Source: a virus. Taken from it: DNA of 64,000 bases. A model generated the notes under the pieces. The model searched no databases. It was given only the letters and a program-made list of their open reading frames with translations, and was not told where the DNA came from. The stretch covers positions 1 through 64,000 of IMG/VR virus record IMGVR_UViG_3300010885_055964; one strand, written 5' to 3'. The position numbers and the translations under genes were made by a program. Numbering within the stretch: the first letter of the stretch is position 1; the number at the start of each line of letters is the position of its first letter. Of this stretch, positions 28,204 through 59,995 are shown one piece after another.

Positions 28204-28603
28204 CTATAATCTGATGAGCAGATGTAGCAGTAATCGTATATTGATATTTTATTTCATGCCTGACGATTCTAGTTAGTATACCAAATCGTGGCATTGGGAT
28301 CTTTAATGGTAGATTATTTGAAACTACTTCATCTTCGGCAGCAGCGTGGAACCACCATCTGAGTGCTTGAGCTGATGCATAACTATATAAGCCGCAGTTT
28401 ATCATTTGACCAGAGCTATCATAACAACCCGGATTAGGCACACCCTTATCACCGCGTGAAAATTCTAACTTAACCCATTTATCTCCGATCATATTACCAT
28501 TAACTAAAGTAGGCCCATGCGGAGAACGTGCCTCGACAGTATATCCTATTTTGGTGCCGGATCCATTACTTCGATCTGCTTTGTAATCATCTTCTAAATT
28601 CAT
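28130..28603 (-). CDS. Hypothetical protein coupled to purZ
   Basis: ATG overlaps the purZ stop (ATGA). Confidence 0.55.
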   Translation of the reverse strand: MNLEDDYKADRSNGSGTKIGYTVEARSPHGPTLVNGNMIGDKWVKLEFSRGDKGVPNPGCYDSSGQMINCGLYSYASAQALRWWFHAAAEDEVVSNNLPLKIPMPRFGILTRIVRHEIKYQYTITATSAHQIIDDMLSPPREESANEPRDKWVYSAK

Positions 28604-29877
28604 TGCTCGCTCCTAAACGCAGTGTCGCGAAAGCAAACATGATTGTTTTGCGGGCCGGTACCGACAATAGTAACAGGAATCTGTGCTACATCCTCGACTC
28701 GCTTAATGAACTGCTTCACCTTGGTCGGAAGTCCATCGAAATCATTTGTTCCATAGCATGACCAATCAATATAGTTTGCGAAGTTGAGTGCTATCTGAGT
28801 GGCACCATTAATCGTTACAGCGTCACGTAGCTGTTCATCCGAGAAGGTGAATACTCTACGTAATCTTTTGGTTACAGTCGTTAGTTCTTTGTCGGCCAAC
28901 GTTGGAGGTGCACCAGCTTGTTCAGCAACTTCTTTCCAACTGATTTCCTTCTGTCCTTCATAAACACCACCAGAGTGACCGACTACTACACCATCTTCAA
29001 CCACGTTACCAACTCGGATTGGGTATGGCCTGATGACCAAATACACATCTCCCATACGCTTGGCTGACAGACCCATATCAGCTAAGTTCTGTACAGCTGT
29101 GGTTCCTCTACTGGTGCACTGAGGGTAATGAGAACCGTGATTAATATCTAACGAAAACCCTTGTGATCCTTCATGCAGAATAGTAAAGCCATCACTCAAC
29201 AACATATCCAAAGACACAGCTATATTCCAGGGCCAAATGTAATTATTATATCCTCCAGCAACCACATACTTTGCTAATTCGGGGCAATCTCTAGCCAATA
29301 TCAGCCCGACCCGACGCATAACTTTATCTGCAAGAAACGCACCACATCCTTGCATCGTACTAGCTATATGCTTTGTACCATCAGTTGAGTTATTTTCTCT
29401 GATTCTTTGTTCATCAGTTATTACTCCTGCTCTTTCGTGAATCCAGATCTTGTTTTCAAGATTGCATTCCTGTATCTCTTGTAACAGCCTTTCAAGGTGA
29501 AATGCGGCTGTTGCGCCTATATAGATTAATGGTCTGTAAGGAATTGGGATGTTGTTATTCACAGCATTCACAGCTTCATCAACTGAATCACAAGGTATTG
29601 GATCAGTAGCGTTATGACTTCCCTCCCTCCACCCGGTCAATCTAGGCTTGACTACCCAAGGCTGAGCAGCCCATTTATTAATAGCCGCACACGATGGAAC
29701 TGCCTTAGCAACAAATGCATCACCTAGATTATTGACTGCGGTATGGCCGGCATTAGCCATGTTAGTGGTTGATATGATTTGTGGTTGATAGCGGTACGCC
29801 AAAGCAGTAGAAATCAAGCCTTTACCGCAAGAACCCCATTGTCCGTCTGTCACAACATTAAACTTTTGCTTCTGCAT
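28600..29877 (-). CDS. purZ: PurA-family synthetase with PurZ (2-amino-dAMP pathway) signatures
   Basis: GQWGSCGKG (Ser at PurA Asp13), NMANAGHT, EGSQGFSL, YPQCTSR, YPIRVG, ELTTVTKRLRRVFTFS, LNFANY. Confidence 0.82.
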   Translation of the reverse strand: MQKQKFNVVTDGQWGSCGKGLISTALAYRYQPQIISTTNMANAGHTAVNNLGDAFVAKAVPSCAAINKWAAQPWVVKPRLTGWREGSHNATDPIPCDSVDEAVNAVNNNIPIPYRPLIYIGATAAFHLERLLQEIQECNLENKIWIHERAGVITDEQRIRENNSTDGTKHIASTMQGCGAFLADKVMRRVGLILARDCPELAKYVVAGGYNNYIWPWNIAVSLDMLLSDGFTILHEGSQGFSLDINHGSHYPQCTSRGTTAVQNLADMGLSAKRMGDVYLVIRPYPIRVGNVVEDGVVVGHSGGVYEGQKEISWKEVAEQAGAPPTLADKELTTVTKRLRRVFTFSDEQLRDAVTINGATQIALNFANYIDWSCYGTNDFDGLPTKVKQFIKRVEDVAQIPVTIVGTGPQNNHVCFRDTAFRSEQ

Positions 29878-29933: not shown

Positions 29934-30371
29934 CTAAATACCAGATGACCTTAACAATTTGGACGAATCTACATCATATCCATCTTTTAGCCAATCTGAT
30001 ATGTGCTTCCGAAAATTTTTCCTGCCGACTATATTACTACTATCGTCTAATAGATCAATAGCGTCTGGCAACGATAATATTTTGATCATTATGTCCCTTA
30101 TACAACCATTTTCGTTTTTGATAATATGTTTAACAGCTACCATATTCTTGCTCTGCAATAGTCTTTTTATCTTCATAGCTAGAAGAATTCTCTCTAGATC
30201 CTTTACTTTTTCATCTATGTCTGTAGACAAAGACACTCGTTCCTGATTCAACCATTCATCTGTTTTGGTGATCAGGTCTAATTCATTCTTCAACTGTTTA
30301 GTCAATACATCTAAATCTTCTTTATACATGTCTGTCCACCCATTCGTTAGGCATCCATATCCTAATACCAT
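29934..30371 (-). CDS. Hypothetical coiled-coil protein
   Basis: 145-aa ORF. Confidence 0.55.
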   Translation of the reverse strand: MVLGYGCLTNGWTDMYKEDLDVLTKQLKNELDLITKTDEWLNQERVSLSTDIDEKVKDLERILLAMKIKRLLQSKNMVAVKHIIKNENGCIRDIMIKILSLPDAIDLLDDSSNIVGRKNFRKHISDWLKDGYDVDSSKLLRSSGI

Positions 30372-30648
30372 TCACTTCCAATCTAACATGCTTGTGTTTA
30401 ATACCGCAAACCAGTGCTATTTCTTGATAGTAAGGATGCTCCATATTGTTTATTATTACACTCTCGCCCATACGTAAATCTGATACAATAATATGTTGAC
30501 TTACGTCATCCGTTTCTGGCCTTACTATGCATAATTCGATCGACTTAAAGGGCCTGAGGTCTGTAATAGGCTTATTGCACACTGGACACATATCATCTTG
30601 AATATCTATCGTACTACTACAATTGGGGCATGATATATTATTCTTCAT
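30322..30648 (-). CDS. Zinc-ribbon plus SH3/KOW-like protein
   Basis: CPNC...CPVC; short beta-rich C-terminus. Confidence 0.55.
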   Translation of the reverse strand: MKNNISCPNCSSTIDIQDDMCPVCNKPITDLRPFKSIELCIVRPETDDVSQHIIVSDLRMGESVIINNMEHPYYQEIALVCGIKHKHVRLEVNGIRIWMPNEWVDRHV

Positions 30649-31330
30649 ATAATAGTTTTCTTAGCTCCTCCGCTGGCTGACTTTGATATTCTTTAATTAT
30701 AGTCTTAGCTTGGGATAGGTTAACAGCGAATCTTTTAGCTCTCTTACATTGAATCAAAGCCCTAAAGTTACTTATGTTGCCTGATACTTTGATAGGTGTT
30801 TTGACGGTGGCAGATACCTTATCTATAAAGTCATTATGTGTTTCAGAATTAGCCTTGATGATCTGTGTTTTGAGCAAAGCATCATTTCGAATGAAACTCG
30901 GAGCCCTGACTGTTTTAATGGCCTCGCAAAGTAGCTGAATATTCTCATCACTTCGTGAAAAAGTGCCTAAAACGAATCTGATTTCATGTAGCTCAGTTAG
31001 GTGATTTCTAATAAAATCAGTCAAGGCTTTGATTTCATTTTTCGTTTCTGCCATGTTCTTCTTGTCGGTGAGCAATATCTCAAATCCTTCAACTTCCAGA
31101 GCATCTGTAGATAAACCTCTCATCTTGAGCAACCCATAATTGTTGCCCTTAGGCCAATCAATCGGTGTAATTATTTTATAATTAGCTTGTTGCTGTGCTC
31201 TAAGGATATAAGCCTCACTAGATAGGTCGGGATGCACTACCATAGCAGGCAATTTGTACTTGGCACTTATTTGCGAGGCTTCTTGTAATTCATTAGCCTG
31301 CATTACGTCGATTTCTAATGTAGTAATCAT
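30638..31330 (-). CDS. DeoC-like (deoxyribose-phosphate aldolase fold) TIM barrel, probably divergent
   Basis: VVHP, TPIDWPKG...K, IKVSGNI, KRFAVN. Confidence 0.55.
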   Translation of the reverse strand: MITTLEIDVMQANELQEASQISAKYKLPAMVVHPDLSSEAYILRAQQQANYKIITPIDWPKGNNYGLLKMRGLSTDALEVEGFEILLTDKKNMAETKNEIKALTDFIRNHLTELHEIRFVLGTFSRSDENIQLLCEAIKTVRAPSFIRNDALLKTQIIKANSETHNDFIDKVSATVKTPIKVSGNISNFRALIQCKRAKRFAVNLSQAKTIIKEYQSQPAEELRKLLYEE

Positions 31331-31453: not shown

Positions 31454-31732
31454 TTAGTCTTGTTTAGTATTTCTCTCGCGAACTGCTTTTTTCAAAGTCT
31501 CAAACTCTTCAATGCTCATTGGGCACTCAGGGCACTTTGATATTGGCTTGTGAGGTCCTTTATCATAAGATCTCCATTCAGTACCGCACCCACTGCACAC
31601 AGTAATTACTGGCTCAGGCTGTACGGGGATAGGTTGTGGTGTCTGCTGAGGATTGCATCCAGAAAAAATGCTAACCACCAGTATACATAACGATACCACA
31701 CCAGCTAAGAAATGTCTCATATTAAGCTCCAT
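31454..31732 (-). CDS. Putative lipoprotein with zinc ribbon
   Basis: Hydrophobic leader ending FSGC; CSGC...CPEC. Confidence 0.6.
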   Translation of the reverse strand: MELNMRHFLAGVVSLCILVVSIFSGCNPQQTPQPIPVQPEPVITVCSGCGTEWRSYDKGPHKPISKCPECPMSIEEFETLKKAVRERNTKQD

Positions 31733-31799
31733 AATTCATTGTTTGTGTGTCAACAGGATCATCCGAGGTCAGCAATAGCTTGTGGCAAGTCTTTATCCG

Positions 31800-33479
31800 T
31801 CATGGAGAAGGGTCCACAGGCCCAGGAGGAGGTGGCTGAGAAGTGTTATCGCTGCAAGGAGGATCCTGAACATTCGGGCACCAGAAAAAAGGCTCCTGAC
31901 AGCATTCATCAGCTGGTGGTGCTTTAGGTCTCTGTATCCTCCAAGGATATTTAGAGGCCCTGACACCATTAGGGCCGAACCATCTGCCCTTTTCCGCACA
32001 AGGTCCAATTGCCGTAGCAGGAATCCAATTAAATTTGTGCCTATTGAAATTTCTCTTCTTCACACAGCCTGGTTGAGGTTCCCAGTTTGGTAACTCGAGT
32101 TCAGGCACTTCTTCTTGTTGTAGATCTATTCGATAAGATGTGATCTTCTTACATTCGTCCAAAGTCGTTTCTAAAGCTACAAATGTGCTTGTAAAGGCTG
32201 GTGCGTCTGATATTATATCAGCATTTGGAGATATGTTTATAAAACGAGCACATATACTTGTGATCAAATCAGAACACAATGTATAAATCACATCATCTTC
32301 ACAATCTAACCGCACATTGATTATGGGGCAATCAGCTCTGATGCTTTCAGTATCTATCTCGCAATTAACTAGTCTTATCTTACAATCGCCAGGATCACCA
32401 CTTACACCATCAGGCCCTTTTTGCCTTGATTTAATGCCCACTCCTGCCACAAACAATTTATCCCACGAACTGCCTACTGGCAAATAGATAGACCCGCACA
32501 CTATATTAGTATTTCGATCATATTTGATAGATTTTAAGGTATTGTCTAATGACAGTTTATCACTGGGTACGTCAGATCTGAAGCTAACTGTTACTTTATT
32601 AGGTTCAATAGGATCTATTTCGACTATAACCACAGGTTCTAGCTGTGTGGTGACTTCACCATTCATGACCTTACTTAATTTGATCCCACATAAACTAGAA
32701 ACAGATGGCTTAACGCCCATGCTCTGTTGTTGGTAAGCCCATCTAGTTTTCGTAAAATCCTGATATAACTCTGGCCTGCTATCCTTTAAAGGTGCCAAAG
32801 TAGCTTCTAAATAAGCTAATTGCAAAGATTCATTCGATTTCTGGGCAGAGATAGTAGATTTAGGAGGATCAATAGCGTAAACTCTAACAGATATTTCAGG
32901 CACATGATCATTAGGGAGAGGAACAGGTCCTCCTAGTTTTAAGGGAGTAGGGGTAAATATGGCAAAATCTAATCGATTAGTGTTTATGGTGCTAGGGCTA
33001 TAATAAGGTTCAGGCACTGCATGCCTGCCAGAAGGTCCACGATCTCCAGGATCACCTTGAGGACCCCTGGGGCCAGGACACTTATTTTTAAGCAATATTT
33101 GGTAGATTCTTGCTTTATCGACTTCAATCCTGAGCTGATTTTCGCCTTCGGCTTTGAATTTAATCAGTTTATCACTGGACTTAAAATAATACCAATAAGC
33201 ATCACTACCAGGTAATATCTTTAAAGGACGTAGATCAGGATTATTTTTAGTAAAAGCTTCGAGTTTTAATAATTGGTCATAGATATTAGGAGTAATAATA
33301 CCATCTTTATTTTCACTAACTGTATCAGGTAGAGCAATAGTACCTCTACTAATCCAAGCATCTTGACCGGCGTCATATTGATAACGATTGCCATAAGAAT
33401 CACATATTTCGTCACCATGATTAGCTGATAGGGGAAGGTTATCTATTTTACCAGATTTGCAAAAAGGTTGATTTGACAT
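31800..33479 (-). CDS. Virion structural protein with collagen-like segment
   Basis: GPRGPQGDPGDRGPSG and GPDGVSGDPGD; Cys/Pro-rich C-terminus. Confidence 0.65.
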   Translation of the reverse strand: MSNQPFCKSGKIDNLPLSANHGDEICDSYGNRYQYDAGQDAWISRGTIALPDTVSENKDGIITPNIYDQLLKLEAFTKNNPDLRPLKILPGSDAYWYYFKSSDKLIKFKAEGENQLRIEVDKARIYQILLKNKCPGPRGPQGDPGDRGPSGRHAVPEPYYSPSTINTNRLDFAIFTPTPLKLGGPVPLPNDHVPEISVRVYAIDPPKSTISAQKSNESLQLAYLEATLAPLKDSRPELYQDFTKTRWAYQQQSMGVKPSVSSLCGIKLSKVMNGEVTTQLEPVVIVEIDPIEPNKVTVSFRSDVPSDKLSLDNTLKSIKYDRNTNIVCGSIYLPVGSSWDKLFVAGVGIKSRQKGPDGVSGDPGDCKIRLVNCEIDTESIRADCPIINVRLDCEDDVIYTLCSDLITSICARFINISPNADIISDAPAFTSTFVALETTLDECKKITSYRIDLQQEEVPELELPNWEPQPGCVKKRNFNRHKFNWIPATAIGPCAEKGRWFGPNGVRASKYPWRIQRPKAPPADECCQEPFFWCPNVQDPPCSDNTSQPPPPGPVDPSP

Positions 33480-33539
33480 AATAACCTCATTATATATTTA
33501 ATTACAATATAATCAGTCGAAAGAAGACAATCAGATAGT

Positions 33540-34030
33540 CATAATATATGGAAAAGGCTTCCCCGTACTAGTTAAAAACCAAAAATCTGATGAACTTTTT
33601 TGGTTTTAATAAGTCGAGACAGGAACTTACTTATAGTTCCTCTTTAACTCCGACACAAGCACCAACTTTGCCTTTTTGGGGAAGTTTCGTTGGTCGAAGT
33701 GTCGTGTCCTTCTCCTGCCCGTGTCACATTCTGCCAAGAATGTCGAACACTCTATCAGTTTCGGTGCCTCAGGAGATTCGAGTTATTTAGATTCTGTCTA
33801 TTACTGTCAGTCCTTACAATCGTACCTTGGCTTTACATGCTAAGAGCTTTGATGCTGGTACTCATGTCGCAAAACTGATAGACCCCAGGTGGAATCTAAA
33901 CTCGTGACTAATCAACAATTTGACCTGAAGCCTATTGCTTCTCTAGTGTCGGGTGATACTTTTAATCTACAACCTCTTGTTGTAATAGCTATGACAGGTG
34001 GCCCATTACGAAACCCGTTCTATTGCTAGA
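33540..34030. ncRNA. Candidate large structured non-coding RNA (class unassigned)
   Basis: At least 7 inverted-repeat stems, several nested, in an ORF-poor gap between two minus-strand genes. Confidence 0.4.
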
Positions 34031-34167
34031 ACAAGAACACCCTAAAGAACCTATCATAACCCATTGACAGTCACGATACCAACCTAACAGCAAACAGAGC
34101 TGTTATAAATGACTTGATTGTCATAACGATACTGGGATATCGTTAAAAACTCAAATACTTGTAAGAT

Positions 34168-34683
34168 TCACAGTTCTATATAATCTACTTTTGATAACAT
34201 TTCCAAATATTCTTCTGGTATGTTTCTATCATTATTGGTGCTAAATCTCATTAATATACCGTCTTCTTCTCCGAATAAATATTTAGCTATCCCTATAGCC
34301 TTGAACTCATTCTTTTTGAGTAACATGAGCATGGGTAATTTTGTTTCGTTGACCCAAGCATCAATACTACTATTATATATATTATTTAAATCAGTTCGGA
34401 ACATATCTGCTATTAGATATGTTGCTATCTTTTTTCTTCTTTTCTTGGGGTTAACTGTTAGATTAATTATTTGATAATATTTTTCATTCACACTGTAGAA
34501 ATTATATGCTTCAACTTTGTTATTAACTTCAGCTACTTTTGAACTTACATTTTCGTCAAAGAATAGATTAGTTAATGTGTCTATATCCCATGGATGTTGA
34601 TACGATTTGTTTTCTAAATCTAACACTCTATCCACATCAGTATCTACCATCTGCCTCACCGATATATCAATTTTAGCTACCAT
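34168..34683 (-). CDS. GNAT acetyltransferase (RimI-like)
   Basis: LDLENKSYQHPW, INLTVNPKKRRKKIATYL, NEFKAIGIAKYLF. Confidence 0.8.
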   Translation of the reverse strand: MVAKIDISVRQMVDTDVDRVLDLENKSYQHPWDIDTLTNLFFDENVSSKVAEVNNKVEAYNFYSVNEKYYQIINLTVNPKKRRKKIATYLIADMFRTDLNNIYNSSIDAWVNETKLPMLMLLKKNEFKAIGIAKYLFGEEDGILMRFSTNNDRNIPEEYLEMLSKVDYIEL

Positions 34684-34765
34684 TGATATACCTCCTGTTT
34701 ATTTTATATTTTCATATTTCTTATCTCCAGATATATCTATTATATATTACGGGAAAACATATGCA

Positions 34766-35881
34766 TCATACTTCTTCGGTTGATTCCAAAGAATATATCT
34801 CGTCACCTTCATGTACCACTTCAGAGTTACACCTTGTTAGGATTGCTATATCTAAATCTTTGATATTATTACTGTCATCTCTTATCCATGCAGCGAACAT
34901 ATCATTGTTAGTAGTTGGTATATGAGATTGCTTATCCGATTCTTTAGATATTTTTACCTGCTTATTGTATAAATCCATCCATCTAACACTATTAGCCCCT
35001 AGAGCTAATATTCTTGTTTTTAAATCATTCTTTTCATTAGGAGTATATTCTCTTTGTAATGCGATTCTTACTATACAATTTTGGATATCTTGTTGTGTTT
35101 TATTATCTATTTCTGTGTCTAATATGGTTGTGAACTGTGGAGGAGCAGTTAGTTCTGGGAAGAATTTTTCACCAGCTCTCCATATATTAATGAATTTATG
35201 TGTGTCTGCCTCTGTATCGTAAACATAGAATCCATGTGGTACGTCCCCCTCATCGAATTTAAAAGGAATTGGGGAACCTGGATACCATACATTATCTCCT
35301 ATCTGTTGCTTACTATGGAAATGTCCAGTATAAATCCTATGAAATGGCATACCTTCGAAAGATACTATAGACCAATCTTTGATCAAGAAACAGGTATTAA
35401 GTGTAGCGCTGCGAACTCCAATATGTGTGAGTAGATTATCTGTAGGTAAAAATGATGGATGCTTGATGATCGATTTAATAACTTTCATATATGTCTTTTC
35501 GTACGTTATGAATGGCACTATCCAAAATCTGGTACCTTGTATTTCTAAGATGCATATGTCTTCTATTACAGTTAGATGTTTACGTAATGGCGAAAGGCTA
35601 TTGATTTCCCAAGAATGTCTTAAGAACATATCATGGTTACCAGGAAACACGACCCATTGTTGATTATATTGTTCTTTGGTTTGCTCGAAGAAAGCACAGA
35701 CCTTGGAATTGATATCTATTTCTATCGATTGTCTATTATGATATAGGTCACCTAGAACTATGATGGTATCTATGCCAAAAACTCGGCAATATTCTCTGAT
35801 TACTCGGCAAGCCCACAATATATCATCTGTACGGCCAGGCACACCAAAATGAATATCTGCTGTGATACATATCTTTGCCAT
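34766..35881 (-). CDS. sbcD: Mre11/SbcD-like nuclease (T4 gp47-like)
   Basis: ADIHFG, LGDLYH, PGNHD, TGHFH, YPGSP. Confidence 0.9.
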   Translation of the reverse strand: MAKICITADIHFGVPGRTDDILWACRVIREYCRVFGIDTIIVLGDLYHNRQSIEIDINSKVCAFFEQTKEQYNQQWVVFPGNHDMFLRHSWEINSLSPLRKHLTVIEDICILEIQGTRFWIVPFITYEKTYMKVIKSIIKHPSFLPTDNLLTHIGVRSATLNTCFLIKDWSIVSFEGMPFHRIYTGHFHSKQQIGDNVWYPGSPIPFKFDEGDVPHGFYVYDTEADTHKFINIWRAGEKFFPELTAPPQFTTILDTEIDNKTQQDIQNCIVRIALQREYTPNEKNDLKTRILALGANSVRWMDLYNKQVKISKESDKQSHIPTTNNDMFAAWIRDDSNNIKDLDIAILTRCNSEVVHEGDEIYSLESTEEV

Positions 35882-35945
35882 TTTTACTCCTCTATATTGA
35901 TAGGATGACTTTAATTAATTCTAATACATGTAGGCTCTGGATATA

Positions 35946-37013
35946 GTGATACACAATATGCCAATAAATAAATTAACTATAAAAGATAGAAAAACTATTT
36001 ATAGTTACGTGGAGATATTTAATACCTTATATGAGGATTTTGGAATTAAATTGTTCGCTATTGGTGGGACATTATTAGGTGCGATGCGAGAACATGACGT
36101 GATTGAATGGGATGATGATATAGATTATGGTTTGTGTGTAGATGATTTTAAGAAGATGTACGATACGAAGCTTATAAGATTTTTAAATGACAGAGGGTTG
36201 GTCTTATTTAAAAAGAAAGGAATCAAATATGACCACATTTGGCATTTGTTTAAAACAAATACGGGCTTTAGACAAGACGATGTGATAAACATAACCCATT
36301 CCGATTACCATAATATAATGGGTCACAGGCATGGCGATGTGATACCTGAGAATAATATCTGTGCTGATATGTTTGGGTATCAATTATATGATGGTCGATA
36401 TTACTTAAAAAGGGATGGAAAGTACATTCAACCTATATCCTCGAGTGCTATTGAACATGATTTGGTCAAATACCAATTTGGTAAAACTAATATTTTTTCT
36501 ATATGTGAGCCTACGGTTTATCTTACCACTACTTATGGTCCTGATTGGATGACTCCCAAGGCACACCAAGTACATCGCAAACATTTTATAAGAGATAACG
36601 TTGATATAATATATATTATTGGTGTCTTCGACGTGTTGCATTCCGGTCATTATAATTTGTTTCATAGATGCAAATCTTCGAATTGTAAGATAATTATAGG
36701 CGTGTGCTCAGATAGGTTGGTACGATTGACAAAAGGACTTGAATGCTTATTTGATCAACAGCTCAGATCTAGCATGATTGAGCGATTGGACATTGTACAA
36801 CAAGTAATAATATATGATGAAATGGATCAGTCTATTAATCTGATAAGACACAATGTGGATGTCTTTGTAGTCCCGCCTGATTATGGTAGTTTAGAGGGCC
36901 ACGCTCAAGGCTTGTTATTGTGTGATAGGTTAGGAATCAAGGTGCAAAGATTACCGAGAACCAATGGGATTAGTAGCTCGCATATCAAAGAAGCGATAAG
37001 AAAGTCGATGTAG
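35946..37013 (+). CDS. LicD phosphotransferase fused to a cytidylyltransferase
   Basis: GGTLLGAMREHDVIEWDDDID, YLTTTYGPDW; C-terminal GVFDVLHSGH, RTNGISSS. Confidence 0.88.
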   Translation: MIHNMPINKLTIKDRKTIYSYVEIFNTLYEDFGIKLFAIGGTLLGAMREHDVIEWDDDIDYGLCVDDFKKMYDTKLIRFLNDRGLVLFKKKGIKYDHIWHLFKTNTGFRQDDVINITHSDYHNIMGHRHGDVIPENNICADMFGYQLYDGRYYLKRDGKYIQPISSSAIEHDLVKYQFGKTNIFSICEPTVYLTTTYGPDWMTPKAHQVHRKHFIRDNVDIIYIIGVFDVLHSGHYNLFHRCKSSNCKIIIGVCSDRLVRLTKGLECLFDQQLRSSMIERLDIVQQVIIYDEMDQSINLIRHNVDVFVVPPDYGSLEGHAQGLLLCDRLGIKVQRLPRTNGISSSHIKEAIRKSM

Positions 37014-37015
37014 TA

Positions 37016-37666
37016 ATGACTAAAGATCAGATCAACTTAGAGACAGTAGCCCGTCTTTTTTGGCAATCTAGGTCTACATATCCTAACTATGGGTTTATTA
37101 AGAGAAGAAGGTTTTATGAGGTGTCATATATTCTTGAGAAAGTAAGCTTTAAGCGTATCGATAAATTAGTAGATTTAGGTTGTGGTGATGGTGGTTTGGT
37201 TAAATGCTTAGATAACTTTTTAGATATCGGCCACATATATTGTTATGACTATTCTGTTTCTCTGATGGATAATATATATGATCCTAAAATCGACAAGCAT
37301 CTATTCGACATAAATGATTTTGCTTATTATAGGAATCTACCCAAGTGTGATTTATTAGTGTTCGGGGGCGTTCTTAATTTCATGTTTGATGATCGTGTGG
37401 CCGTACATTTGTTGGCTCATTTCGATGCTGAGCATATTTTTATCAGGTGTCCTTGTACACAAAAGCCAGATGATGAGGTGGTTAATGTATTCAGTGACCA
37501 ATTGAATTCTTACTACTCGAGCGTGTATAGGACAGTAAAAAATACTATACGATTAATTGAGCAATCTGGCTTGACGATAAATCAGTGTGTCAGAATTTAT
37601 CCTGATGATATAGAGAGCAGCTTTGGTACTAAGCAACAGATGTTTTACTGCACCAGAAAAGGGTAA
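37016..37666 (+). CDS. Class I SAM-dependent methyltransferase
   Basis: VDLGCGDG, CYDYS, GGVLNF. Confidence 0.75.
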   Translation: MTKDQINLETVARLFWQSRSTYPNYGFIKRRRFYEVSYILEKVSFKRIDKLVDLGCGDGGLVKCLDNFLDIGHIYCYDYSVSLMDNIYDPKIDKHLFDINDFAYYRNLPKCDLLVFGGVLNFMFDDRVAVHLLAHFDAEHIFIRCPCTQKPDDEVVNVFSDQLNSYYSSVYRTVKNTIRLIEQSGLTINQCVRIYPDDIESSFGTKQQMFYCTRKG

Positions 37667-37671
37667 ATTAA

Positions 37672-40001: not shown

Positions 40002-40002
40002 A

Positions 40003-41835: not shown

Positions 41836-41892
41836 ATATATCTTTTAGCATATTACTAACCAAATATATATTGATAGAAATAGGAGCCAAAG

Positions 41893-52923: not shown

Positions 52924-53253
52924 ATGGACATTATACACATCATATTATGTTTGCTAGTGTTATCACAAGTAATCGCGCAACTCATCACATTGGTACTACT
53001 ATACAAGATATATTACATTTTTGATAGATTTAGATTTCCCTGGGAAGAGATCAAGGCTATAACAAATGCTTGGAAAACCACAATACCCCCAAGCGATTTC
53101 TCGTCAAACAAGGATATTACGCCAACTACGGGAGCTAAAGCAGCTAGCACAGTTAAAGAACTCCCACCAGAAGCAATTGCCCCCAGTCTTAAAAGAATGC
53201 AAAGAACATCAGGCTTCGGTTCCGGTATTAGTGACAAGAACAGTGATACATAA
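52924..53253 (+). CDS. Single-pass membrane protein
   Basis: N-terminal hydrophobic helix. Confidence 0.55.
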   Translation: MDIIHIILCLLVLSQVIAQLITLVLLYKIYYIFDRFRFPWEEIKAITNAWKTTIPPSDFSSNKDITPTTGAKAASTVKELPPEAIAPSLKRMQRTSGFGSGISDKNSDT

Positions 53254-53425
53254 GTTTACTCAACAGGTGACCGTACGCAGAGAGATTAAAGTAATAATCA
53301 ATAGCGATCGTCCAAGACCATGCCAATTACCAAAAGATAGTGCGATACAGCCTGATATTGACCACGCGGTTGATGAGTTACAAGTATATAGGCTAGGTGA
53401 TGTCTTCAACGGCAGGAGAGTAGTT

Positions 53426-54508
53426 ATGCAACACTTAGGCATCGATGTGGGCACTAAGACTATAGTTTTAGCATATAGATCAGATGATAAGGTAGGATAT
53501 CTGTCAGAAATTAATGGCTATTACCCTTTCGAAAGGTGTACACCATTTATCAAGAATATGCTCAATGATCCGAATAAGGTACGGTCTGATGGCACCAAGA
53601 GACCAGCTAGGTGGTTCGAACACGATGGTAAGGCGATCGTATTAGGTAGAGATGCTGAAGAATTCGCATATGCTAAGAACGATACATTATTGAGACCAAT
53701 GGCTGAAGGCGGCATAGCAGCAGATGAAGCGGCTATGACCGTGTTAGCTGCTATAGTTCAGGGTTTAATGACTATGGCTGAGCATGATGTAGGAAAGTTC
53801 GATGATCAAGTTAAGCTATGTTATTGTACTACTGCTAAAGCGATAAACAAGCATTCGAATATAGATTATCATCAGAGAGTCGTTAATTTGGTTCTCGAGG
53901 GTTATGATACCAAGGCCAAGCTATCATATAATTCGATATATGAATCCCACGCTATTGTTATAGACATGAGTGAAGACGGTACTGGAATAGGGATATCATG
54001 GGGGGCAGGTACTGTAACTGTTAGCTACGTCAAGTACGGTTTAGAAGTATACTCTTTCTGTTGGGTAGGTGCCGGTGATTGGATAGACTCACAAGTAGCA
54101 TCTAGGCATGGGTATGATCCAAATGCTGTAAACACTATGAAGAAAAAGGCGAAGGAAACGCCGACAACTGTGGCCAAGAAGAAGACTGAAGTAGACTTGA
54201 CTCCGGGTGTAGATTATAGTAATGATAGATTAGCGATGGATATAGTGCTTCATTACGACGTGCTTATAAATCAAGTGATAGAAGGCATTGTTGAAGGCTT
54301 TAAGCAGAACGAGTCTGAAGCGAGAATTGAAGGTGCTGTGCCTATATTTATGGCTGGCGGCACCTCGTCGCCAGTTGGTTTCGTAGAAAGATGCGCTGAA
54401 AAGTTAAATCAATTAGAACCGCCTTTTGAAGTAGGAACTATCAAAAGGGCCGAACAGCCATTGTATTCCGTAGCGACTGGCTGCCTAAAGGCAGCTGAAA
54501 TGTTTTGA
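53426..54508 (+). CDS. Actin-like ATPase (MamK/ParM/MreB superfamily)
   Basis: GIDVGT, LLRPMAEG, ESHA, SWGAGT, AGDWID, MAGGTS, YSVATG; AGGAG RBS before ATG 53426. Confidence 0.82.
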   Translation: MQHLGIDVGTKTIVLAYRSDDKVGYLSEINGYYPFERCTPFIKNMLNDPNKVRSDGTKRPARWFEHDGKAIVLGRDAEEFAYAKNDTLLRPMAEGGIAADEAAMTVLAAIVQGLMTMAEHDVGKFDDQVKLCYCTTAKAINKHSNIDYHQRVVNLVLEGYDTKAKLSYNSIYESHAIVIDMSEDGTGIGISWGAGTVTVSYVKYGLEVYSFCWVGAGDWIDSQVASRHGYDPNAVNTMKKKAKETPTTVAKKKTEVDLTPGVDYSNDRLAMDIVLHYDVLINQVIEGIVEGFKQNESEARIEGAVPIFMAGGTSSPVGFVERCAEKLNQLEPPFEVGTIKRAEQPLYSVATGCLKAAEMF

Positions 54509-54613: not shown

Positions 54614-56062
54614 ATGGCATATGATCCCAAAGATTATAGTGGTTCTACGCAATTTGTACATTTGCACAATCACACTGTATTTTCTGCTCTGGATGGTGTA
54701 GCCACTCCAGAACAATACGCTAAATTATGCTCTGAGCGTGGGTATCCTGCTATGAGTGCTACTGAGCACGGGCATATGGCATCGGTACCCGACATGTACT
54801 TGGCGTTTAAAAAATATGGAATCAAGTATATTCCAGGATGTGAAATATATTATAATGACTGGGAACCGCATAGACAAACGCTGGAACAAAGCGGAACAAA
54901 GGTCAGATCTCCCGAATGGAGAAAAAATAATCCTGATATTTCTGCTAGGATATCTAGAAACAGACATTTAACTATATTATGTAAAAACGAAGTAGGATAC
55001 CATAATTTATTAAAACTTACTACTCAAGCATATGAGACTGGTTTATTCGGCATGGGTAGGACGCAGTATAACCGAATATGGTTTGAAAAGCTATGTGAGT
55101 ATAAAGAAGGTCTTATTATATTATCAGGCTGCTTAAATGGCCCAATTAGTCATGAACTTAGGCATCGCTTCCTTAAGGATAAAGAAGGCGTCAAGATTTT
55201 CGAACGAGATAAACAACAAGCTTTCAATGATGCTATAAAATATGTAAAGATGTTTAAAAAAGAATTTGGTGATGACTATTATATAGAATTACAGATGCCT
55301 GGTATTGAAGCCATTGATAAGTGGGGCGAAAAAACGGTAAGTGATGATGCTGTCTTCAAGTGGTCAATAGCTATAGCCGATAAATACAATATACCTGTCG
55401 TTTTGACCAATGATTGTCATTATTTAGATCGCAAAGACTTCGAATTGCAAAAGCTTATGATGGCTGTGGCTCAAGAAACAACTATGGATTCTCCCGATTT
55501 ATTTCATGTTAATAGTAGTGAGCAATTCGTACAATCTAGAGCTGAATTGTGGTCTAGATTTAAAAACAATAAATATAGCGAAGGTATAGACGATAGAATA
55601 TTTGAAGTGATGTGTGATAATACATTGAAAATAGCAGAAAAATGCGTAGCATTTGATGTAGACACGTCCCCTAAGATACCTGAAATAGATAATGCTGATG
55701 ATTCTATCAAGCAGATCGTAGCCAAACGCTTAAAGGAAGGTGGATACGATAAAATAACTAAGAGATATTTAATAGACGGAAAAGAAGTGACATACGTTGA
55801 GCAAGCTAAAATAGAATTAAATAGATTTATCGATAAGGGATATTCGAGTTATTTTTTAATAACTCAAGATCTTGTTAACTATGGTAGACAAAGAGGTTGG
55901 CCGTTTAGCCCAAGAGGCAGTGCTGGTGGTTCTTTGGTGTGTTTCTTGATGGGCATCCATACGTTGAATCCTATGTTGTGGGGTCTATCGTTTGATAGGT
56001 TTTTATCACCTAGTAGAGGTGGTTATATGTTAAACGTAGACATGCCAGATCCAATCAGTTGA
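54614..56062 (+). CDS. dnaE: Split DnaE, N-terminal part: PHP domain plus GS-motif palm segment
   Basis: HLHNHT, TEHG, GCEIY, SGCLNG, TNDCHY; RGSAGGSLVCFLMG..NP and FDRFLSPSR; ends DMPDPIS. Confidence 0.9.
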   Translation: MAYDPKDYSGSTQFVHLHNHTVFSALDGVATPEQYAKLCSERGYPAMSATEHGHMASVPDMYLAFKKYGIKYIPGCEIYYNDWEPHRQTLEQSGTKVRSPEWRKNNPDISARISRNRHLTILCKNEVGYHNLLKLTTQAYETGLFGMGRTQYNRIWFEKLCEYKEGLIILSGCLNGPISHELRHRFLKDKEGVKIFERDKQQAFNDAIKYVKMFKKEFGDDYYIELQMPGIEAIDKWGEKTVSDDAVFKWSIAIADKYNIPVVLTNDCHYLDRKDFELQKLMMAVAQETTMDSPDLFHVNSSEQFVQSRAELWSRFKNNKYSEGIDDRIFEVMCDNTLKIAEKCVAFDVDTSPKIPEIDNADDSIKQIVAKRLKEGGYDKITKRYLIDGKEVTYVEQAKIELNRFIDKGYSSYFLITQDLVNYGRQRGWPFSPRGSAGGSLVCFLMGIHTLNPMLWGLSFDRFLSPSRGGYMLNVDMPDPIS

Positions 56063-56088
56063 TTTATTACAATTGCTGGAGTCATTAA

Positions 56089-56580
56089 ATGACAGAGACA
56101 AAAGATTTAGAAATAGCGATTAGCGAACTTAAGCATTCTATAAAGATTCATCTGTTAATAATGGCAGGTCCGAGCCAGCAGCTTTGTGCTTTTTTGGTAA
56201 AAACGATCGATTTATTAGAAGATGATGATATTCAAAGGAAAAAGCAGGAAACATTGTTGTTGGCCTTTAGTATCGTAGAGGCAATAGCGGTGCATGTTCA
56301 ACAGGCGATTGATGCGAGGGGCCAAGTAGCGAAAAACAAAGGTAATCATATGCCAGAGAATGTCAGATCTTATTCTGATAATATATTAATAACGTTAGGC
56401 CAGGTAAGAGGACTAAATGACAAGAGGGTGGCTAAAACGGCTGTGCTTGTCGCTATAGGCAAAGCATTAGATGCTCTGGGGACATTTACTGGCGCAGTAT
56501 ACCCTACGATTTTTGAAGTTGATGGACGTCAGCTGAATAATCACCAGACAAGACCCGGAGAACAAGCGGAGACATTATGA
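56089..56580 (+). CDS. Hypothetical helical protein
   Basis: 163 aa, GGAG RBS. Confidence 0.6.
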   Translation: MTETKDLEIAISELKHSIKIHLLIMAGPSQQLCAFLVKTIDLLEDDDIQRKKQETLLLAFSIVEAIAVHVQQAIDARGQVAKNKGNHMPENVRSYSDNILITLGQVRGLNDKRVAKTAVLVAIGKALDALGTFTGAVYPTIFEVDGRQLNNHQTRPGEQAETL

Positions 56581-56831
56581 AGGATTTTAGCTGGTACACC
56601 GCCGTTATTGTATTCGTTATATATATATTATTCGATATATTATATGCTCTTTATGTCATGTGTGTTAGTCAACAAAGAGCTTTGCGGGCTAGTGTTATAA
56701 GCTCGATATTATATAGCATAGGTGCATATGGGGTTATGAATTATTTAGAGAATCCATTGTACATTATTCCCTTAGCATGCGGTGCGTTTATAGGCACTTT
56801 TATTGCTGTGAAATATATGGGCCATTTGTAA
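56577..56831 (+). CDS. Small three-helix membrane protein
   Basis: 84 aa, almost fully hydrophobic. Confidence 0.65.
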   Translation: MKDFSWYTAVIVFVIYILFDILYALYVMCVSQQRALRASVISSILYSIGAYGVMNYLENPLYIIPLACGAFIGTFIAVKYMGHL

Positions 56832-56840
56832 TTAGGCAGA

Positions 56841-57293
56841 TTGAATAGCGGAATAACGTGTATTAGGAAGAACATGAACATCAATTATGAGAAGACTGCC
56901 TTTGTGCTGATCAAACCTCCTTCTAAGGTAGTTTCTACACATAAGATCAACAACAGGCATGAGCATATCAAGCTAATCGAGACAGCTAAACATAATGAAT
57001 TGTTGCTATATTATTCCCATGTCATAAAAAAAGGAAATAAATATTACACTGATCAACCGTTAATAGTTGATGAAGAATCAGCTAAAAACTATATCGATAT
57101 GTTCTCTGACAACACAGAGAAGGAGGACAGTGTTGAAGTTCAGCCCAGTGTTCAGGTCGCACCGCCAATCACAGAAGAACGGTCGCTTGTATGTCCTTTT
57201 TGTAATAAAAAAATGTCAAGCACACCGGGGCGGACTTTACACATTAAATCTAAACATCCCGATAAGTTAGATGAGTACAAGGGCATGCTATGA
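56841..57293 (+). CDS. Protein with C-terminal C2H2 zinc finger
   Basis: CPFC...LHIKSKH. Confidence 0.65.
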   Translation: MNSGITCIRKNMNINYEKTAFVLIKPPSKVVSTHKINNRHEHIKLIETAKHNELLLYYSHVIKKGNKYYTDQPLIVDEESAKNYIDMFSDNTEKEDSVEVQPSVQVAPPITEERSLVCPFCNKKMSSTPGRTLHIKSKHPDKLDEYKGML

Positions 57294-59995
57294 AGAATTG
57301 GGATCAGATAAAGGAATTAGCTTATCGAGTAGTGTCCGATCGTGGTCTAGATAAAAAATATCAAGAACGTTTGGCTTTTGAAATTATTGAAATAGAAAAA
57401 CAAGGTGCTAGTGCTAAGTGGGAAATATATTATAACGATAATAAGAAATTCGCTACCAATCCAAATAATTTAGTGTTACCGTGGTTATTAAATATGGTTA
57501 ATGAGGATCCTATACTTAGTAGGAATGATATTATATTAAACACAGTTAGAGCATCAAAAGTCAAAGAATACCGAGCCAAATATGGGAGTATTCCTTCTGA
57601 TTTTATTAAAGATACAGACATGCCAGACATTGATCTAGATTGCTTACCAGAAGCTAGAGATCCTATTAAAGAATATGCCGCTAAGACATATAGTATGGGT
57701 ATAACGGATGGATATGGTCCTGTCTGTTCTGTAGGAACTTGGCAGACTTATAAATTCAAAAACGCTATTATTGATGCTTGTGCTGGAACAGGATTGGTGG
57801 ATAGAAGTGTAGCTTTCGAGCTGACTACTCAATTGCCAGATGAAGTCGATCAATTAAAAGACGGAGGTGAGGCCGCTTGCAAAAACCGCATTATTGATAA
57901 TGGAGAGGAAAAAGAATGCGGATTTATTCATAGCTTAACCGAATGCCCAAGATGTGGTTCAGCAGACACTGATGCCCCAACCATAGGTAAGTTATTACAA
58001 GAATACGAAATATTAAGAAATTTCGCTTCTACGCATAAAACAGTAGTTGGATATGCTGTTAAACTGGTGGGTCGTGTGCGTAATATGGGCATGCATGCTG
58101 GTGCTCTCATAATAGCAGATAGGTCACTATTCGGTAATATCCCAATGGCTAAAAGCAGCAGCAAAGGCTATTGGGTCAGTATGTGGACAGAAGGCCGCAA
58201 TGCTCAATTATCTAAATTTGGATATAATAAATGGGATATACTTGGTCTCAAAACACTTAAATATATTTTTGAATGTTGTAAATTGATAGAAGCCAATCGC
58301 GGTATATCTTTCGGACCTAACATGGAAGGATGGGACTATAACGATCCCGAAACCGGGATAGCAGGATGGTATATTGATGGAACCGGAAAGAAATGTGATA
58401 TATTACTTAATGACGAACATACCTTAAGATTAGCTAACGAATTAAAAACAGATGGTGTTTTCCAATTCGACACAGATTTAGCTAAACAAATATTATCGAA
58501 TGGTGTACGCAACTTCGATGACTTAATGTTGTTTAATGCTATGGGCCATCCAGGCCCAATGGCTTCGATTCCAGAAGCAGTAGAAAATAGAGATAATTTC
58601 AAGAAAGATTGGCGATCTGCTTTGCCTAAACCTATTTATGAAATATTAAAGTATACATATGGTGTAATCGTTTACCAGGAGCAATTGCAAGCTATTTGGC
58701 AGATAATGGCAGGGTTTACAGCTCCCGAGGCCCAAGAAGCACGTAAGGCTGTAGCCAAAAAATGGACTCATAAACTAAAACCCATAAGAGAAAAATGGCT
58801 TAAGGGTGCGAGCAGGTCTATGAGTGATAAGGATGCAGAAGCATGGTGGGCCAAAATGGAGACATTCGGTCGTTATGCTTTCAATAAAAGCCACGCCGTC
58901 AGTTATTGTTTGGTAGCTCATAGATGTCTTTGGCTCAAAGCTCATTTTACACCAGAATGGTGGGCCGCAGTGATGAGCGATTGCCACCAAGAAAAGCTAG
59001 TAAGATATATGGGGATAGCTAGGTCTGAAAAATGGAGGCCGACCGAAATCACTTATTCTGGGAAACATCGTCCTGCTAAAAAATCGGATGGAGTCATATT
59101 TGATACGCTAAATTTAGAAAATATGACAAGGAGTTTCACTGTAACAGGAGACACGGTCAATCAGGGCTTAATCGGAATAAAAGGTATAGGGGAAACAGCT
59201 GCTGTAAAGTACGAGCGAAAAGGCGTTTATGCGGACATCGACGAGTTTATTACAAAAACAGGTGGAAAAGATAAAGCCGCATGCGAGCGGTTCATAAAAT
59301 TGGGTGCTTTCAAATATATGCAAGGACATAGCAATTCGAAGGCTGTATGGACATGGTATCAATATAAATATTGCAGTGGGAAAGATATTACTGCACTTAG
59401 GACAACTATCAAAGAGCAATTACTAGCTGCAGAAGGATGGAATGATCAGACTATCGAGCAAGAGAGAAAAAGGCAGATCACTGAATACAAGAAGGCTTAT
59501 CCTAATAGAAGGAAAGTTCCTGAAAAGCTAATAAATTGGAAACCGAGTCCAAATGATTCTCGTGATAATGTAATGGCATTGGTAACTGAAGACTTCTCTC
59601 TTGTGGAAGTGCTGCAGTTTGAGAAAGACTATTTAGGGTATTATTTACATTCTCCTTTAGATCTATACGAGTGTAAGGGACAATGCTCTATTGAAACAGC
59701 TAAAGATTATTCTACTAAAGACACATCAACCAGATTAGAAGGAGTTATCGTAAGCGTAGATTATGGTAAGACCAAAAATGATAAAGATTTCGCTAAGATA
59801 ATAATAAGTGATGGTATACAACAGACATTAGTCTTAATGTGGGAGTCAGAAATCAAACATCAAAATCAAGATACATTAAAACCAGGCGTAGGAGTACAAT
59901 TATACGTCAATTATGACCCTACTAGAAATATCTTCTCAGTAGCAAGAAATGAAGCTATTCTTAGACTAAAACGGAAGCAACATGCAACTAGTTAG
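57290..59995 (+). CDS. dnaE: Split DnaE, C-terminal part: catalytic Asp residues, thumb with Zn-ribbon insert, fingers, HhH, OB fold
   Basis: PDIDLD, MHAGALII, KWDILGL, IVYQEQ, FNKSHAVSY, GIKGIGE. Confidence 0.92.
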   Translation: MKNWDQIKELAYRVVSDRGLDKKYQERLAFEIIEIEKQGASAKWEIYYNDNKKFATNPNNLVLPWLLNMVNEDPILSRNDIILNTVRASKVKEYRAKYGSIPSDFIKDTDMPDIDLDCLPEARDPIKEYAAKTYSMGITDGYGPVCSVGTWQTYKFKNAIIDACAGTGLVDRSVAFELTTQLPDEVDQLKDGGEAACKNRIIDNGEEKECGFIHSLTECPRCGSADTDAPTIGKLLQEYEILRNFASTHKTVVGYAVKLVGRVRNMGMHAGALIIADRSLFGNIPMAKSSSKGYWVSMWTEGRNAQLSKFGYNKWDILGLKTLKYIFECCKLIEANRGISFGPNMEGWDYNDPETGIAGWYIDGTGKKCDILLNDEHTLRLANELKTDGVFQFDTDLAKQILSNGVRNFDDLMLFNAMGHPGPMASIPEAVENRDNFKKDWRSALPKPIYEILKYTYGVIVYQEQLQAIWQIMAGFTAPEAQEARKAVAKKWTHKLKPIREKWLKGASRSMSDKDAEAWWAKMETFGRYAFNKSHAVSYCLVAHRCLWLKAHFTPEWWAAVMSDCHQEKLVRYMGIARSEKWRPTEITYSGKHRPAKKSDGVIFDTLNLENMTRSFTVTGDTVNQGLIGIKGIGETAAVKYERKGVYADIDEFITKTGGKDKAACERFIKLGAFKYMQGHSNSKAVWTWYQYKYCSGKDITALRTTIKEQLLAAEGWNDQTIEQERKRQITEYKKAYPNRRKVPEKLINWKPSPNDSRDNVMALVTEDFSLVEVLQFEKDYLGYYLHSPLDLYECKGQCSIETAKDYSTKDTSTRLEGVIVSVDYGKTKNDKDFAKIIISDGIQQTLVLMWESEIKHQNQDTLKPGVGVQLYVNYDPTRNIFSVARNEAILRLKRKQHATS

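Follow-up and report, generated by a model that had tools for sequence, protein, structure and literature searches.

Two gene sets are known from phages with aminoadenine (Z) in their DNA. In phiVC8, S-2L and phages of the SH-Ab 15497 type, the Z-cluster consists of PurZ, DatZ and MazZ, with DpoZ or a PrimPol; in Arthrobacter phage Wayne and Gordonia phage Ghobes, PurZ0 is combined with DutZ, DmtZ, DUF5664 and DpoZ-1. In the accessible literature Z genomes have so far come from siphoviruses and podoviruses, and the PurZ- and PurZ0-type phage records that we retrieved were about 38-83 kb long, apart from a 168-kb Flavobacterium phage with a divergent synthetase. The open-access literature yielded no report of PurZ in connection with jumbo or huge phages, and one paper of 2026 names PurZ and DnaE once each (PMC13122594). 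Work on huge phages interprets such synthetase genes as purine biosynthesis (PMC7162821). Here we describe a PurZ-type synthetase gene, its operon and a two-gene family C polymerase (split DnaE) in the first 64 kb (64,000 nucleotides, hereafter the window) of the linear 178,026-bp IMG/VR record IMGVR_UViG_3300010885_055964. Since CheckV rates this record as 49% complete, the phage genome should be roughly 360 kb, about 8 times larger than those of phiVC8, S-2L and SH-Ab 15497. The window is part of a lineage of uncultivated phages with genomes of ~340-410 kb.

As judged from its motifs, the synthetase is a genuine PurZ-type enzyme with a predicted dGMP-using activity, and the accessory genes and polymerases found with it differ from the two solutions described so far (PurZ/DatZ/MazZ/DpoZ-2 and PurZ0/DutZ/DmtZ/DUF5664/DpoZ-1). 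What we observed directly are the identities of the genes, their motifs and folds, the synteny and the co-occurrence; on balance we see an even chance that the PurZ-type operon raises dZTP and lowers deoxyadenosine (dA) nucleotides without DatZ or MazZ, with the split DnaE copying the DNA. A first-pass annotation of the window had proposed a Z-DNA pathway built on DnaE polymerases, with no PolA; the reading of a Z pathway is strengthened by the present data, and the part concerning the polymerases proved only partly right.

The PurZ-type synthetase

The gene for the PurZ-type (succino-amino-deoxyadenylate) synthetase (28600-29877, minus strand) encodes 425 amino acids. Its adenylosuccinate synthetase fold was recognized by PF00709 with 114 bits against a cut-off of 27, the protein was assigned to phrog_1211, and both PurA and PurZ structures in the PDB were matched at E 1e-34 to 1e-38. 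In the P-loop, GSCGKG stands in place of the GDEGKG of PurA (Asp13 to Ser), and GS[CT]GKG was present in all 119 full-length proteins among the best 120 database relatives, which are 54-73% identical. At this site 99% of PurA have Asp13, and phage PurZ-group proteins have Ser without exception (100%; PMC12884076). S23, T273 and Q308 (S-2L numbering) are PurZ-specific residues in contact with substrates, and T273 and N305/F306/Q308 are PurZ-specific contacts of an ATP-type donor pocket that replaces the GTP motif (PMC8342488). The window synthetase has all three substrate-contact residues; its TTVTK/LNFANY aligns with TTVTK/LNFAQY of S-2L PurZ and TTVTK/LNFCNY of phiVC8 PurZ, and Pyrococcus PurA has TVTG and TMLD instead. 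PurZ0 proteins retain the GTP-type motif LTMLD, and the window synthetase is therefore an ATP-type PurZ. In this it is like the ATP-using PurZ of phiVC8, S-2L and SH-Ab 15497, with the same three substrate-contact residues and 29-33% identity (29-35% to characterized PurZ as a whole), and unlike the GTP-type PurZ0 of Wayne and Ghobes, to which it is 24-26% identical.

In a quick maximum-likelihood tree, from which archaeal PurA was left out, the huge-phage synthetases formed one clade with a Shimodaira-Hasegawa-like approximate likelihood ratio (SH-aLRT) support of 100. This clade lay on the PurZ side of the tree, with SH-aLRT 96/96 on the branches between it and PurZ0, and its neighbors were vB_BpsS-140 and a group with Flavobacterium phage MaF61. 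The root of the tree is unreliable because the sole outgroup sits on a very long branch. An archaeal outgroup is missing because two scans of 185,579 genomes yielded only three short contigs of metagenome-assembled genomes, and these were the only cellular homologs of the window PurZ obtained. Together, the GSCGKG P-loop, TTVTK/LNFANY and the placement in the tree bear out the PurZ assignment made in the first-pass annotation.

The closest isolated-phage relative of the synthetase (34.8% identity) is encoded by vB_BpsS-140, a cultured siphovirus with a genome of 55 kb. The two proteins agree in the P-loop Ser and in NFAN, whereas the T273-equivalent motif of vB_BpsS-140 is PurA-like (TVTG). 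The annotation flanking purA in vB_BpsS-140 lists no gene of the two types that accompany purZ in the huge phages (NDT and DERA types, described below), although no search was aimed at either.

A different explanation would be that the synthetase is not a Z enzyme but a PurA-type protein that has diverged, encoded by an auxiliary metabolic gene and serving purine interconversion. Its top PDB match was Pyrococcus PurA, narrowly above PurZ, its NCBIfam PurZ score falls under the cut-off, and huge phages have been reported to carry purine biosynthesis genes (PMC7162821). On the other hand, Ser replaces, here and in all relatives, the catalytic Asp13 kept in 99% of PurA (PMC12884076). The PurZ ATP motif stands where PurA has its GTP-specificity motif, TTVTK takes the place of the PurA motif, and none of the other window open reading frames (ORFs) scanned stood out as a purine-pathway gene. 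We consider such a metabolic role very unlikely.

Two relatives carry unusual synthetase genes. The PurZ ortholog at 105000-110000 of relative G016 lies in an ORF of 1173-1232 amino acids with a large insertion right after the first P-loop residues, which may be an intein, and the complete 408-kb relative G018 contains a second, very divergent PurA-like gene (257800-260400; 471 amino acids) besides PurZ.

The purZ operon and its rearrangement in the window

The first-pass annotation had drawn its hypothesis from co-occurrence across the window and not from an operon. In fact the window carries, in rearranged form, an operon whose intact version is seen in relatives. In 10 related IMG/VR loci (PurZ 49-59% identical), the genes on one strand follow the same order in 10/10: a protein like the nucleoside deoxyribosyltransferases (NDT), a 230-amino-acid protein with the fold of deoxyribose-5-phosphate aldolase (DERA), a zinc-ribbon protein, a 145-amino-acid protein, purZ as the fifth gene, and a TIM-barrel protein, with the zinc-ribbon and 145-amino-acid genes undetected in some loci. 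The NDT-like gene comes first, directly upstream of the DERA-fold gene in all 10, and is located ~1 to 1.6 kb from purZ in three complete genomes. In the window, after rearrangement, it lies 12.5 kb from purZ on the opposite strand. Compared with the 10 relatives, the stretch that parts it from the rest of the operon is 31454-42367, which marks a local inversion or rearrangement. This stretch encodes an uncharacterized 559-amino-acid protein, a GNAT protein, an SbcD-like phosphoesterase, a LicD/cytidylyltransferase, an XPD-like helicase and an SbcC-like ATPase, and includes an ORF-free gap of 688 bp.

The NDT-like gene (42368-42859, plus strand; probable start at 42437) encodes an NDT-superfamily (deoxy)nucleoside monophosphate ((d)NMP) N-glycosidase-like protein. 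Its PF05014 match reached 28.7 bits against a cut-off of 28.8. A profile of 10 orthologs matched the CMP N-glycosidase 4jen in the PDB at E 1e-6, and also BlsM, MilB and nucleoside deoxyribosyltransferases at E 1e-6 to 1e-4 (5vto and 4jem among the entries), which upholds the earlier call of an NDT-type N-glycosidase. Tyr7 and the catalytic Glu78 of G-x-H-x-E-L-G are invariant in the family, and the protein has the NDT-superfamily fold with the catalytic Glu and the N-terminal Tyr. It shares these residues with DNPH1, MilB and BlsM, while its sequence similarity to them is marginal. NDT-family enzymes, DmtZ among them, were linked to Z synthesis only in 2025-2026 (bioRxiv 10.1101/2025.10.22.683976; PMC12884076), and DmtZ is dAMP-specific in PurZ0 phages (PMC12884076). 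As in Wayne and Ghobes, an NDT-superfamily enzyme is genetically linked to the synthetase and a dUTPase homolog is present in the genome. Unlike the situation in those phages, the NDT-like protein has no detectable DmtZ similarity and is not fused to Dut, the dUTPase is canonical-scoring and encoded 20 kb away, and there is no DUF5664 or DpoZ-1.

The second operon gene (30638-31330, minus strand) encodes the 230-amino-acid protein, whose AlphaFold (AF2) model (pLDDT 86.7, pTM 0.84) is a TIM barrel like that of DERA (DeoC). In a Foldseek search of the PDB the top ~30 matches to this model were all DERA (E down to 4e-12, TM 0.73-0.79), and the ESM Atlas placed it at TM 0.79/0.77 to a DeoC cluster. 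N-glycosidases acting on NMP or dNMP release ribose 5-phosphate or deoxyribose 5-phosphate, and deoxyribose 5-phosphate is the substrate of DERA. Because the product of the one enzyme class is the substrate of the other, the NDT-like and DERA-fold genes fit consecutive steps of a pathway.

The remaining operon members are a small zinc-ribbon protein (30322-30648, minus strand), which gave sub-threshold zinc-ribbon matches and has an ortholog in the same slot in 6/10 relatives; a 145-amino-acid helical protein directly upstream of purZ (29934-30371, minus strand), with orthologs in 8 relatives and few invariant polar residues; and a xylose-isomerase-like TIM barrel directly downstream of purZ (27328-28203, minus strand), which scored 28.2 bits with PF01261 against a cut-off of 31.1 and occupies the same slot in 9/10 relatives.

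Polymerases that accompany purZ

The first-pass annotation had noted two unusual DnaE systems, and both were found. The first is the split DnaE at 54614-59995. DnaE-N (54614-56062, plus strand; 482 amino acids) contains the PHP domain (121.9 bits) and the first third of the palm (PF07733 positions 4-99), and DnaE-C (57290-59995, plus strand; 901 amino acids) contains the catalytic palm (PF07733 positions 99-260), fingers and HhH, with matches to PF17657 and PF14579 and a 109-amino-acid N-terminal extension. The two proteins cover positions 4-398 and 400-1040 of the DnaE model. The split DnaE thus has the PHP domain, palm with catalytic aspartates, fingers and HhH of family C, and is the only polymerase in which all four were found. 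The halves are 1.2 kb apart in the window and the split is kept across the lineage; in relative G001 they are 58 kb apart on opposite strands, which indicates that the split DnaE is a real two-subunit enzyme.

Nine metal ligands of the PHP domain mark the active proofreading PHP domains of DnaE1 enzymes. All nine (H18, H20, D27, H52, E77, H118, C173, D267 and H269) are invariant in 7 orthologs of DnaE-N and, since the whole set is kept, the PHP domain of the split DnaE probably proofreads. In domain content and intact ligands the enzyme is like the Mycobacterium/Thermus-type DnaE1 with PHP proofreading, and in its two genes it is like the cyanobacterial split-intein DnaE, although it carries no intein signature. 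It is unlike all of these in the site of the split, at about position 99 of the PF07733 palm, in the conserved small genes between the halves, in the 58-kb separation in one relative and in that no beta-clamp gene was found. The beta-clamp N-domain PF00712 gave no match in the 178-kb record or in the 8 complete or near-complete genomes with close DnaE (G009, G018, G020, G024, G032, G034, G035 and G038, hereafter the complete relatives). Not being a single polypeptide, and with no beta-clamp gene found, the split DnaE departs from a canonical family C replicase. PolB was likewise found neither in the record nor in the eight complete relatives, and the split DnaE is likely the main replicase.

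Three small ORFs (163, 84 and 150 amino acids; 56089-57293, plus strand) lie between the DnaE halves, and none of them was matched by Pfam or PHROGs. Orthologs of the first and of the third, which carries a C-terminal C2H2-like zinc finger, occupy the corresponding slots in 4 to 5 of six relatives, and the middle slot is occupied in four of six relatives by an ORF of 139-154 amino acids with no detected similarity to the 84-amino-acid ORF of the window. In G024 a MazG gene (2287-2748 of locus L097) stands in a slot between the DnaE halves. This prompted a comparison of the first small ORF with MazG, which was rejected upon poor alignment. In G009 an HD-domain gene (305502-305876) directly follows DnaE-C. 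The positions of these two genes place nucleotide-pool enzymes inside the polymerase operon, and we regard both genes as sporadic.

An exact 12-bp direct repeat, AGACATGCCAGA, occurs at 56038-56049 near the end of DnaE-N and at 57616-57627 in the catalytic motif of DnaE-C, with a chance expectation of 0.02 matches. The repeat suggests that the split arose by insertion or partial duplication. A reading of the DnaE-C N-terminus as a duplicated palm segment was rejected since the BLAST comparison was not significant. Immediately upstream of DnaE-N, a gene at 53066-54508 (plus strand) encodes a protein of the Volactin family (archaeal actin-like; PF25216, 147.7 bits).

The second DnaE system is a mini-DnaE of 583 amino acids (875-2626, minus strand; PF07733 161.6 bits, PF17657 50.6 bits), which consists of palm and fingers only, without PHP and without the C-terminal domains. 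Its best GenBank phage match, at 38.6%, was in an uncultured 484-kb phage, and just two clade records carry it, the window's own (G000) and G006. About 1 kb away, at 3706-5070 (minus strand), lies a gene for a metallophosphoesterase-type 'DNA repair exonuclease' with an N-terminal helix-turn-helix (phrog_704, E 2.8e-59), of which the Metallophos and Mre11 matches are weak.

The statement that no PolA is visible in the window is literally true. A gene for a 398-amino-acid family A polymerase (mini-PolA) is however located at positions 70413-71609 of the record, 6.4 kb past the window end, and its neighbors encode RecA, DnaB, a gp32-like single-stranded DNA-binding protein (SSB) and a 5'-3' exonuclease (FEN). 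PF00476 matched the mini-PolA of the record with 28.5 bits, gave weak matches in a ~400-amino-acid ORF of 9/13 relatives, and matched all 10 orthologs, the best at 3e-13. A mini-PolA profile matched Taq polymerase at E 1e-10, with residues ~155-390 aligned to palm and fingers. Motif A (D-W-x-x-A-D-x-R), the Arg and Lys of motif B and the Asp of motif C are invariant; motif C has HDS instead of HDE, and other residues stand in for the Phe and Tyr of the O-helix. The protein thus has the PolA domain in common with DpoZ, whereas the 3'-5' exonuclease domain of DpoZ is missing and phmmer at E 0.01 found no similarity to DpoZ of phiVC8, Wayne or Ghobes (DpoZ-1, DpoZ-2). A DpoZ elsewhere in the genome would count against replication of Z-DNA by DnaE; the family A gene touches this point and is not a DpoZ ortholog. 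The mini-PolA was detected at 63 loci in IMG/VR, with no match among 50,697 GenBank phages. Its DnaB/SSB/FEN neighborhood suggests gap filling, which we consider its most likely role.

Co-occurrence with purZ was surveyed in IMG/VR from three seeds. Among 13 records collected with PurZ, DnaE was present in 10 and the mini-PolA in 9, the missing cases being explained by records that are short fragments. Seeding with the mini-PolA gave 17 long records, of which 9 carry a PurA-like gene and 12 carry DnaE, and seeding with DnaE-N gave 12 further long records, 10 with PurZ and 11 with the mini-PolA. In the complete relatives, purZ, split DnaE and mini-PolA occurred together in 8/8. Of two genomes without purZ, G028 (97% complete) has a distant mini-PolA only and the near-complete G039 a distant DnaE-N only. 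The co-occurrence of the three genes is more than chance, and it constitutes a lineage core, not a repeated independent association, because all 8 genomes come from one lineage and are not independent events. An association of purZ with split dnaE in IMG/VR, as the first-pass annotation anticipated, was therefore obtained within one lineage. Its idea of DnaE-built Z replication stands insofar as DnaE is the likely main replicase and no PolB was found; its premise that there is no family A polymerase is not supported, and a conserved mini-PolA tracks purZ as tightly as the split DnaE does.

The independent case is the cultured Bacillus phage vB_BpsS-140, which has a PurZ-like gene and DnaE and no PolA. 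dnaE_1 and dnaE_2 are given as separate genes in the description of that phage (PMC6375668), and dnaE is thus in two genes as in the window, with the difference that it is split between PHP and palm, not inside the palm. The feature table of vB_BpsS-140 (MH884512.1, 48892-52494) shows no coding sequence over the DnaE genes, despite an open frame of 853 amino acids.

The linkage of the mini-PolA with purZ in 8/8 complete relatives, as tight as that of DnaE, raises the alternative that the mini-PolA, not DnaE, is dedicated to Z as a functional analog of DpoZ, and that DnaE is an inherited replicase unrelated to Z. The mini-PolA keeps motif A, the Arg and Lys of motif B and the Asp of motif C, it can be called lineage-specific from the lack of matches in GenBank phages, and most described Z phages use PolA, with S-2L and its PrimPol as the known exception (PMC8342488, PMC12884076). 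Against this stand its lack of an exonuclease domain, when the Z preference of DpoZ is attributed to exonuclease-linked backtracking (PMC8599892), the absence of phmmer similarity to DpoZ-1 or DpoZ-2, a position beside SSB and FEN like that of an Okazaki-processing enzyme, and the distant homolog in G028, which has no purZ. A dedication of the mini-PolA to Z appears doubtful to us. S-2L, in turn, is a precedent for a Z genome copied without a Z-selective family A polymerase, in which the PrimPol is non-selective and selectivity comes from pool cleaning; S-2L differs in depending on DatZ, which this record lacks, and the polymerase here is of family C. As A and Z are treated alike by most polymerases (PMC8342488), DnaE would need no special adaptation for Z.

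Nucleotide pool, proposed pathway and other genes of the window

The DatZ families PF01966 and PF12917 and the MazZ families PF03819 and PF04447 had no match in the 178-kb record, the search with PF04447 (DUF550) having been run without a positive control; among complete relatives, one HD protein (G009) and one MazG (G024) were found. Queries with phiVC8 DatZ, MazZ and DpoZ and with the accessory proteins of Wayne and Ghobes by phmmer returned only general dUTPase similarity. A search of the record for polA/dpoZ, datZ and mazZ thus yielded none of DpoZ, DatZ and MazZ, and a PolA that is not DpoZ. The prediction of non-canonical pool-cleaning enzymes agrees with these absences and with the NDT-type gene at the head of the purZ operon. 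This huge-phage record accordingly differs from phiVC8, S-2L and SH-Ab 15497 in the lack of DatZ, MazZ and DpoZ, in the NDT-like glycosidase and DERA-fold partners of purZ, and in the split DnaE and the 398-amino-acid, exonuclease-less PolA, whereas the predicted logic, dZMP from dGMP together with depletion of A, is the same.

Other nucleotide genes form an operon at 8588-10894 (minus strand), made up of ThyX (10007-10894; Thy1, 170 bits), a dUTPase with a ~70-amino-acid insertion (9244-9993; dUTPase, 51 bits) and, directly after the dUTPase gene, a DUF5662-like protein (8588-9247; ESM Atlas). By score, the dUTPase resembles canonical Dut (98 bits) more than Wayne DutZ (E 1.4e-9). DutZ was rejected as its identity upon this score and since the apparent N-terminal extension is an insertion between motifs.

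The same genes could also be read as a system that makes dZ nucleotides and replaces adenine only in part, no dedicated remover of dATP being present, with the NDT-like and DERA-fold proteins serving salvage or the recycling of host DNA. The absence of the DatZ, MazZ and DUF550 families and the canonical look of the dUTPase agree with this, and expression of purZ with non-selective polymerases led to partial substitution in E. coli (PMC8342488). However, the NDT-like, DERA-fold and PurZ genes keep their strict order even though the sequences are only 49-59% identical, which speaks for a coupled function, and the NDT-family DmtZ is dAMP-specific in PurZ0 phages (PMC12884076). Partial replacement therefore seems unlikely.

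In the reading that we favor, with an operon acting on the Z and A pools and a split DnaE copying the DNA, PurZ would make dSMP, the dZMP precursor, from dGMP, aspartate and ATP. The operon would raise dZTP and lower dA nucleotides by a route other than DatZ/MazZ. The NDT-like glycosidase would split a dNMP, which would be dAMP by analogy with DmtZ (PMC12884076), into base and deoxyribose 5-phosphate, and the DERA-fold protein would bind or consume the deoxyribose 5-phosphate. Host PurB and kinases would complete dZTP, and the two-gene DnaE would copy the genome with DnaB, gp32-like SSB, the FEN nuclease and the gap-filling mini-PolA. As a speculation, an active PHP domain of DnaE could give the same Z bias as the exonuclease-linked backtracking to which the preference of DpoZ for Z has been attributed (PMC8599892). 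A bolder version, which we put forward only tentatively, holds that genomes are ZTGC across the ~340-410-kb lineage, with adenine excluded by a third strategy in place of DatZ/MazZ or DutZ/DmtZ, namely an NDT-type dAMP N-glycosidase coupled to a DERA-fold enzyme that removes deoxyribose 5-phosphate, and with Z-DNA replicated by the two-gene family C polymerase, the PHP exonuclease giving the proofreading bias that DpoZ owes to its exonuclease domain.

Several results weigh against the favored reading. No recognizable dATP-removing triphosphatase was found, and the DatZ and MazZ families are not conserved in complete relatives. The record covers about half (~49%) of the phage genome. For the synthetase, the NCBIfam PurZ model NF038379, which was built on small-phage PurZ, gave 212.4 bits, below the cut-off of 300, and the archaeal PurA model NF003295 ties with it at 211.1 bits. 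phmmer found no similarity of the NDT-like protein to the DmtZ of Wayne or Ghobes, and its base specificity is assigned here by analogy with DmtZ. Sequence searches of Pfam (PF01791 included) and the PDB did not link the DERA-fold protein to DeoC, and an invariant Arg148 ends strand 6 where the Schiff-base lysine would be expected, as judged from strand position and not from superposition; invariant Lys154 and Lys181 are near Arg148. As the lysine that DeoC uses is seemingly missing, with Arg148 in its place, aldolase activity is doubtful and the protein may be something other than an aldolase. purZ and DnaE co-occur within one lineage and in one outside case. Finally, it is we who infer the substrates, the Z in the DNA and the choice of the Z-inserting polymerase.

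If the favored reading is true, aminoadenine DNA would extend to huge phages, which are common in environmental metagenomes, and a third accessory-enzyme solution would exist beside DatZ/MazZ and DutZ/DmtZ. It would also be the first family C replisome on Z-DNA, the known ones having DpoZ of family A or a PrimPol, and 'adenylosuccinate synthase' annotations in huge phages would have been misread as purine-biosynthesis genes. The pairing of purZ and split dnaE can be tested at the bench in cultured vB_BpsS-140.

Among the other genes that the first-pass annotation had associated with the pathway, NucS was supported. The NucS/EndoMS-type endonuclease (19088-19738, minus strand) has the N-terminal PH-like and C-terminal nuclease domains, with PF01939 at 52.6 bits and PF21003 at 43 bits, both above cut-off; its score with NCBIfam NF003270 was 122 bits against a cut-off of 216. 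Two HD hydrolases had also been listed. With PF01966 and PF12917 absent from the record, the HD reading is unproven, and the likeliest candidate in the window is the protein of 8588-9247. It belongs to a very conserved phage family of ~152 amino acids, with 1509 homologs at 60-70% identity and an invariant His/Asp cluster, and its AF2 model (pLDDT 73.8) matched no PDB fold by Foldseek or VIA-align (best Z 4.0). The listed uracil-DNA glycosylase (UDG)-like protein fared no better, coming down to a weak UDG-like stretch (63727-63879; PF03167 11.9 bits, E 0.017; no Pfam match at E 0.01) in an ORF at 63304-63999 (plus strand) that continues past the window end.

The GC content of the window is 36-43%, the coding strand changes near 36 kb, and most of the window ORFs tested had no match in PHROGs. 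The window further encodes a sulfatase (5958-7328), a sulfotransferase (19778-20578), a 1692-amino-acid RCC1-repeat protein with an FGE-sulfatase domain (20493-25571), many glycosyltransferases and a radical SAM/SPASM pair (44868-47864), which suggests an elaborate glycan or sulfation system.

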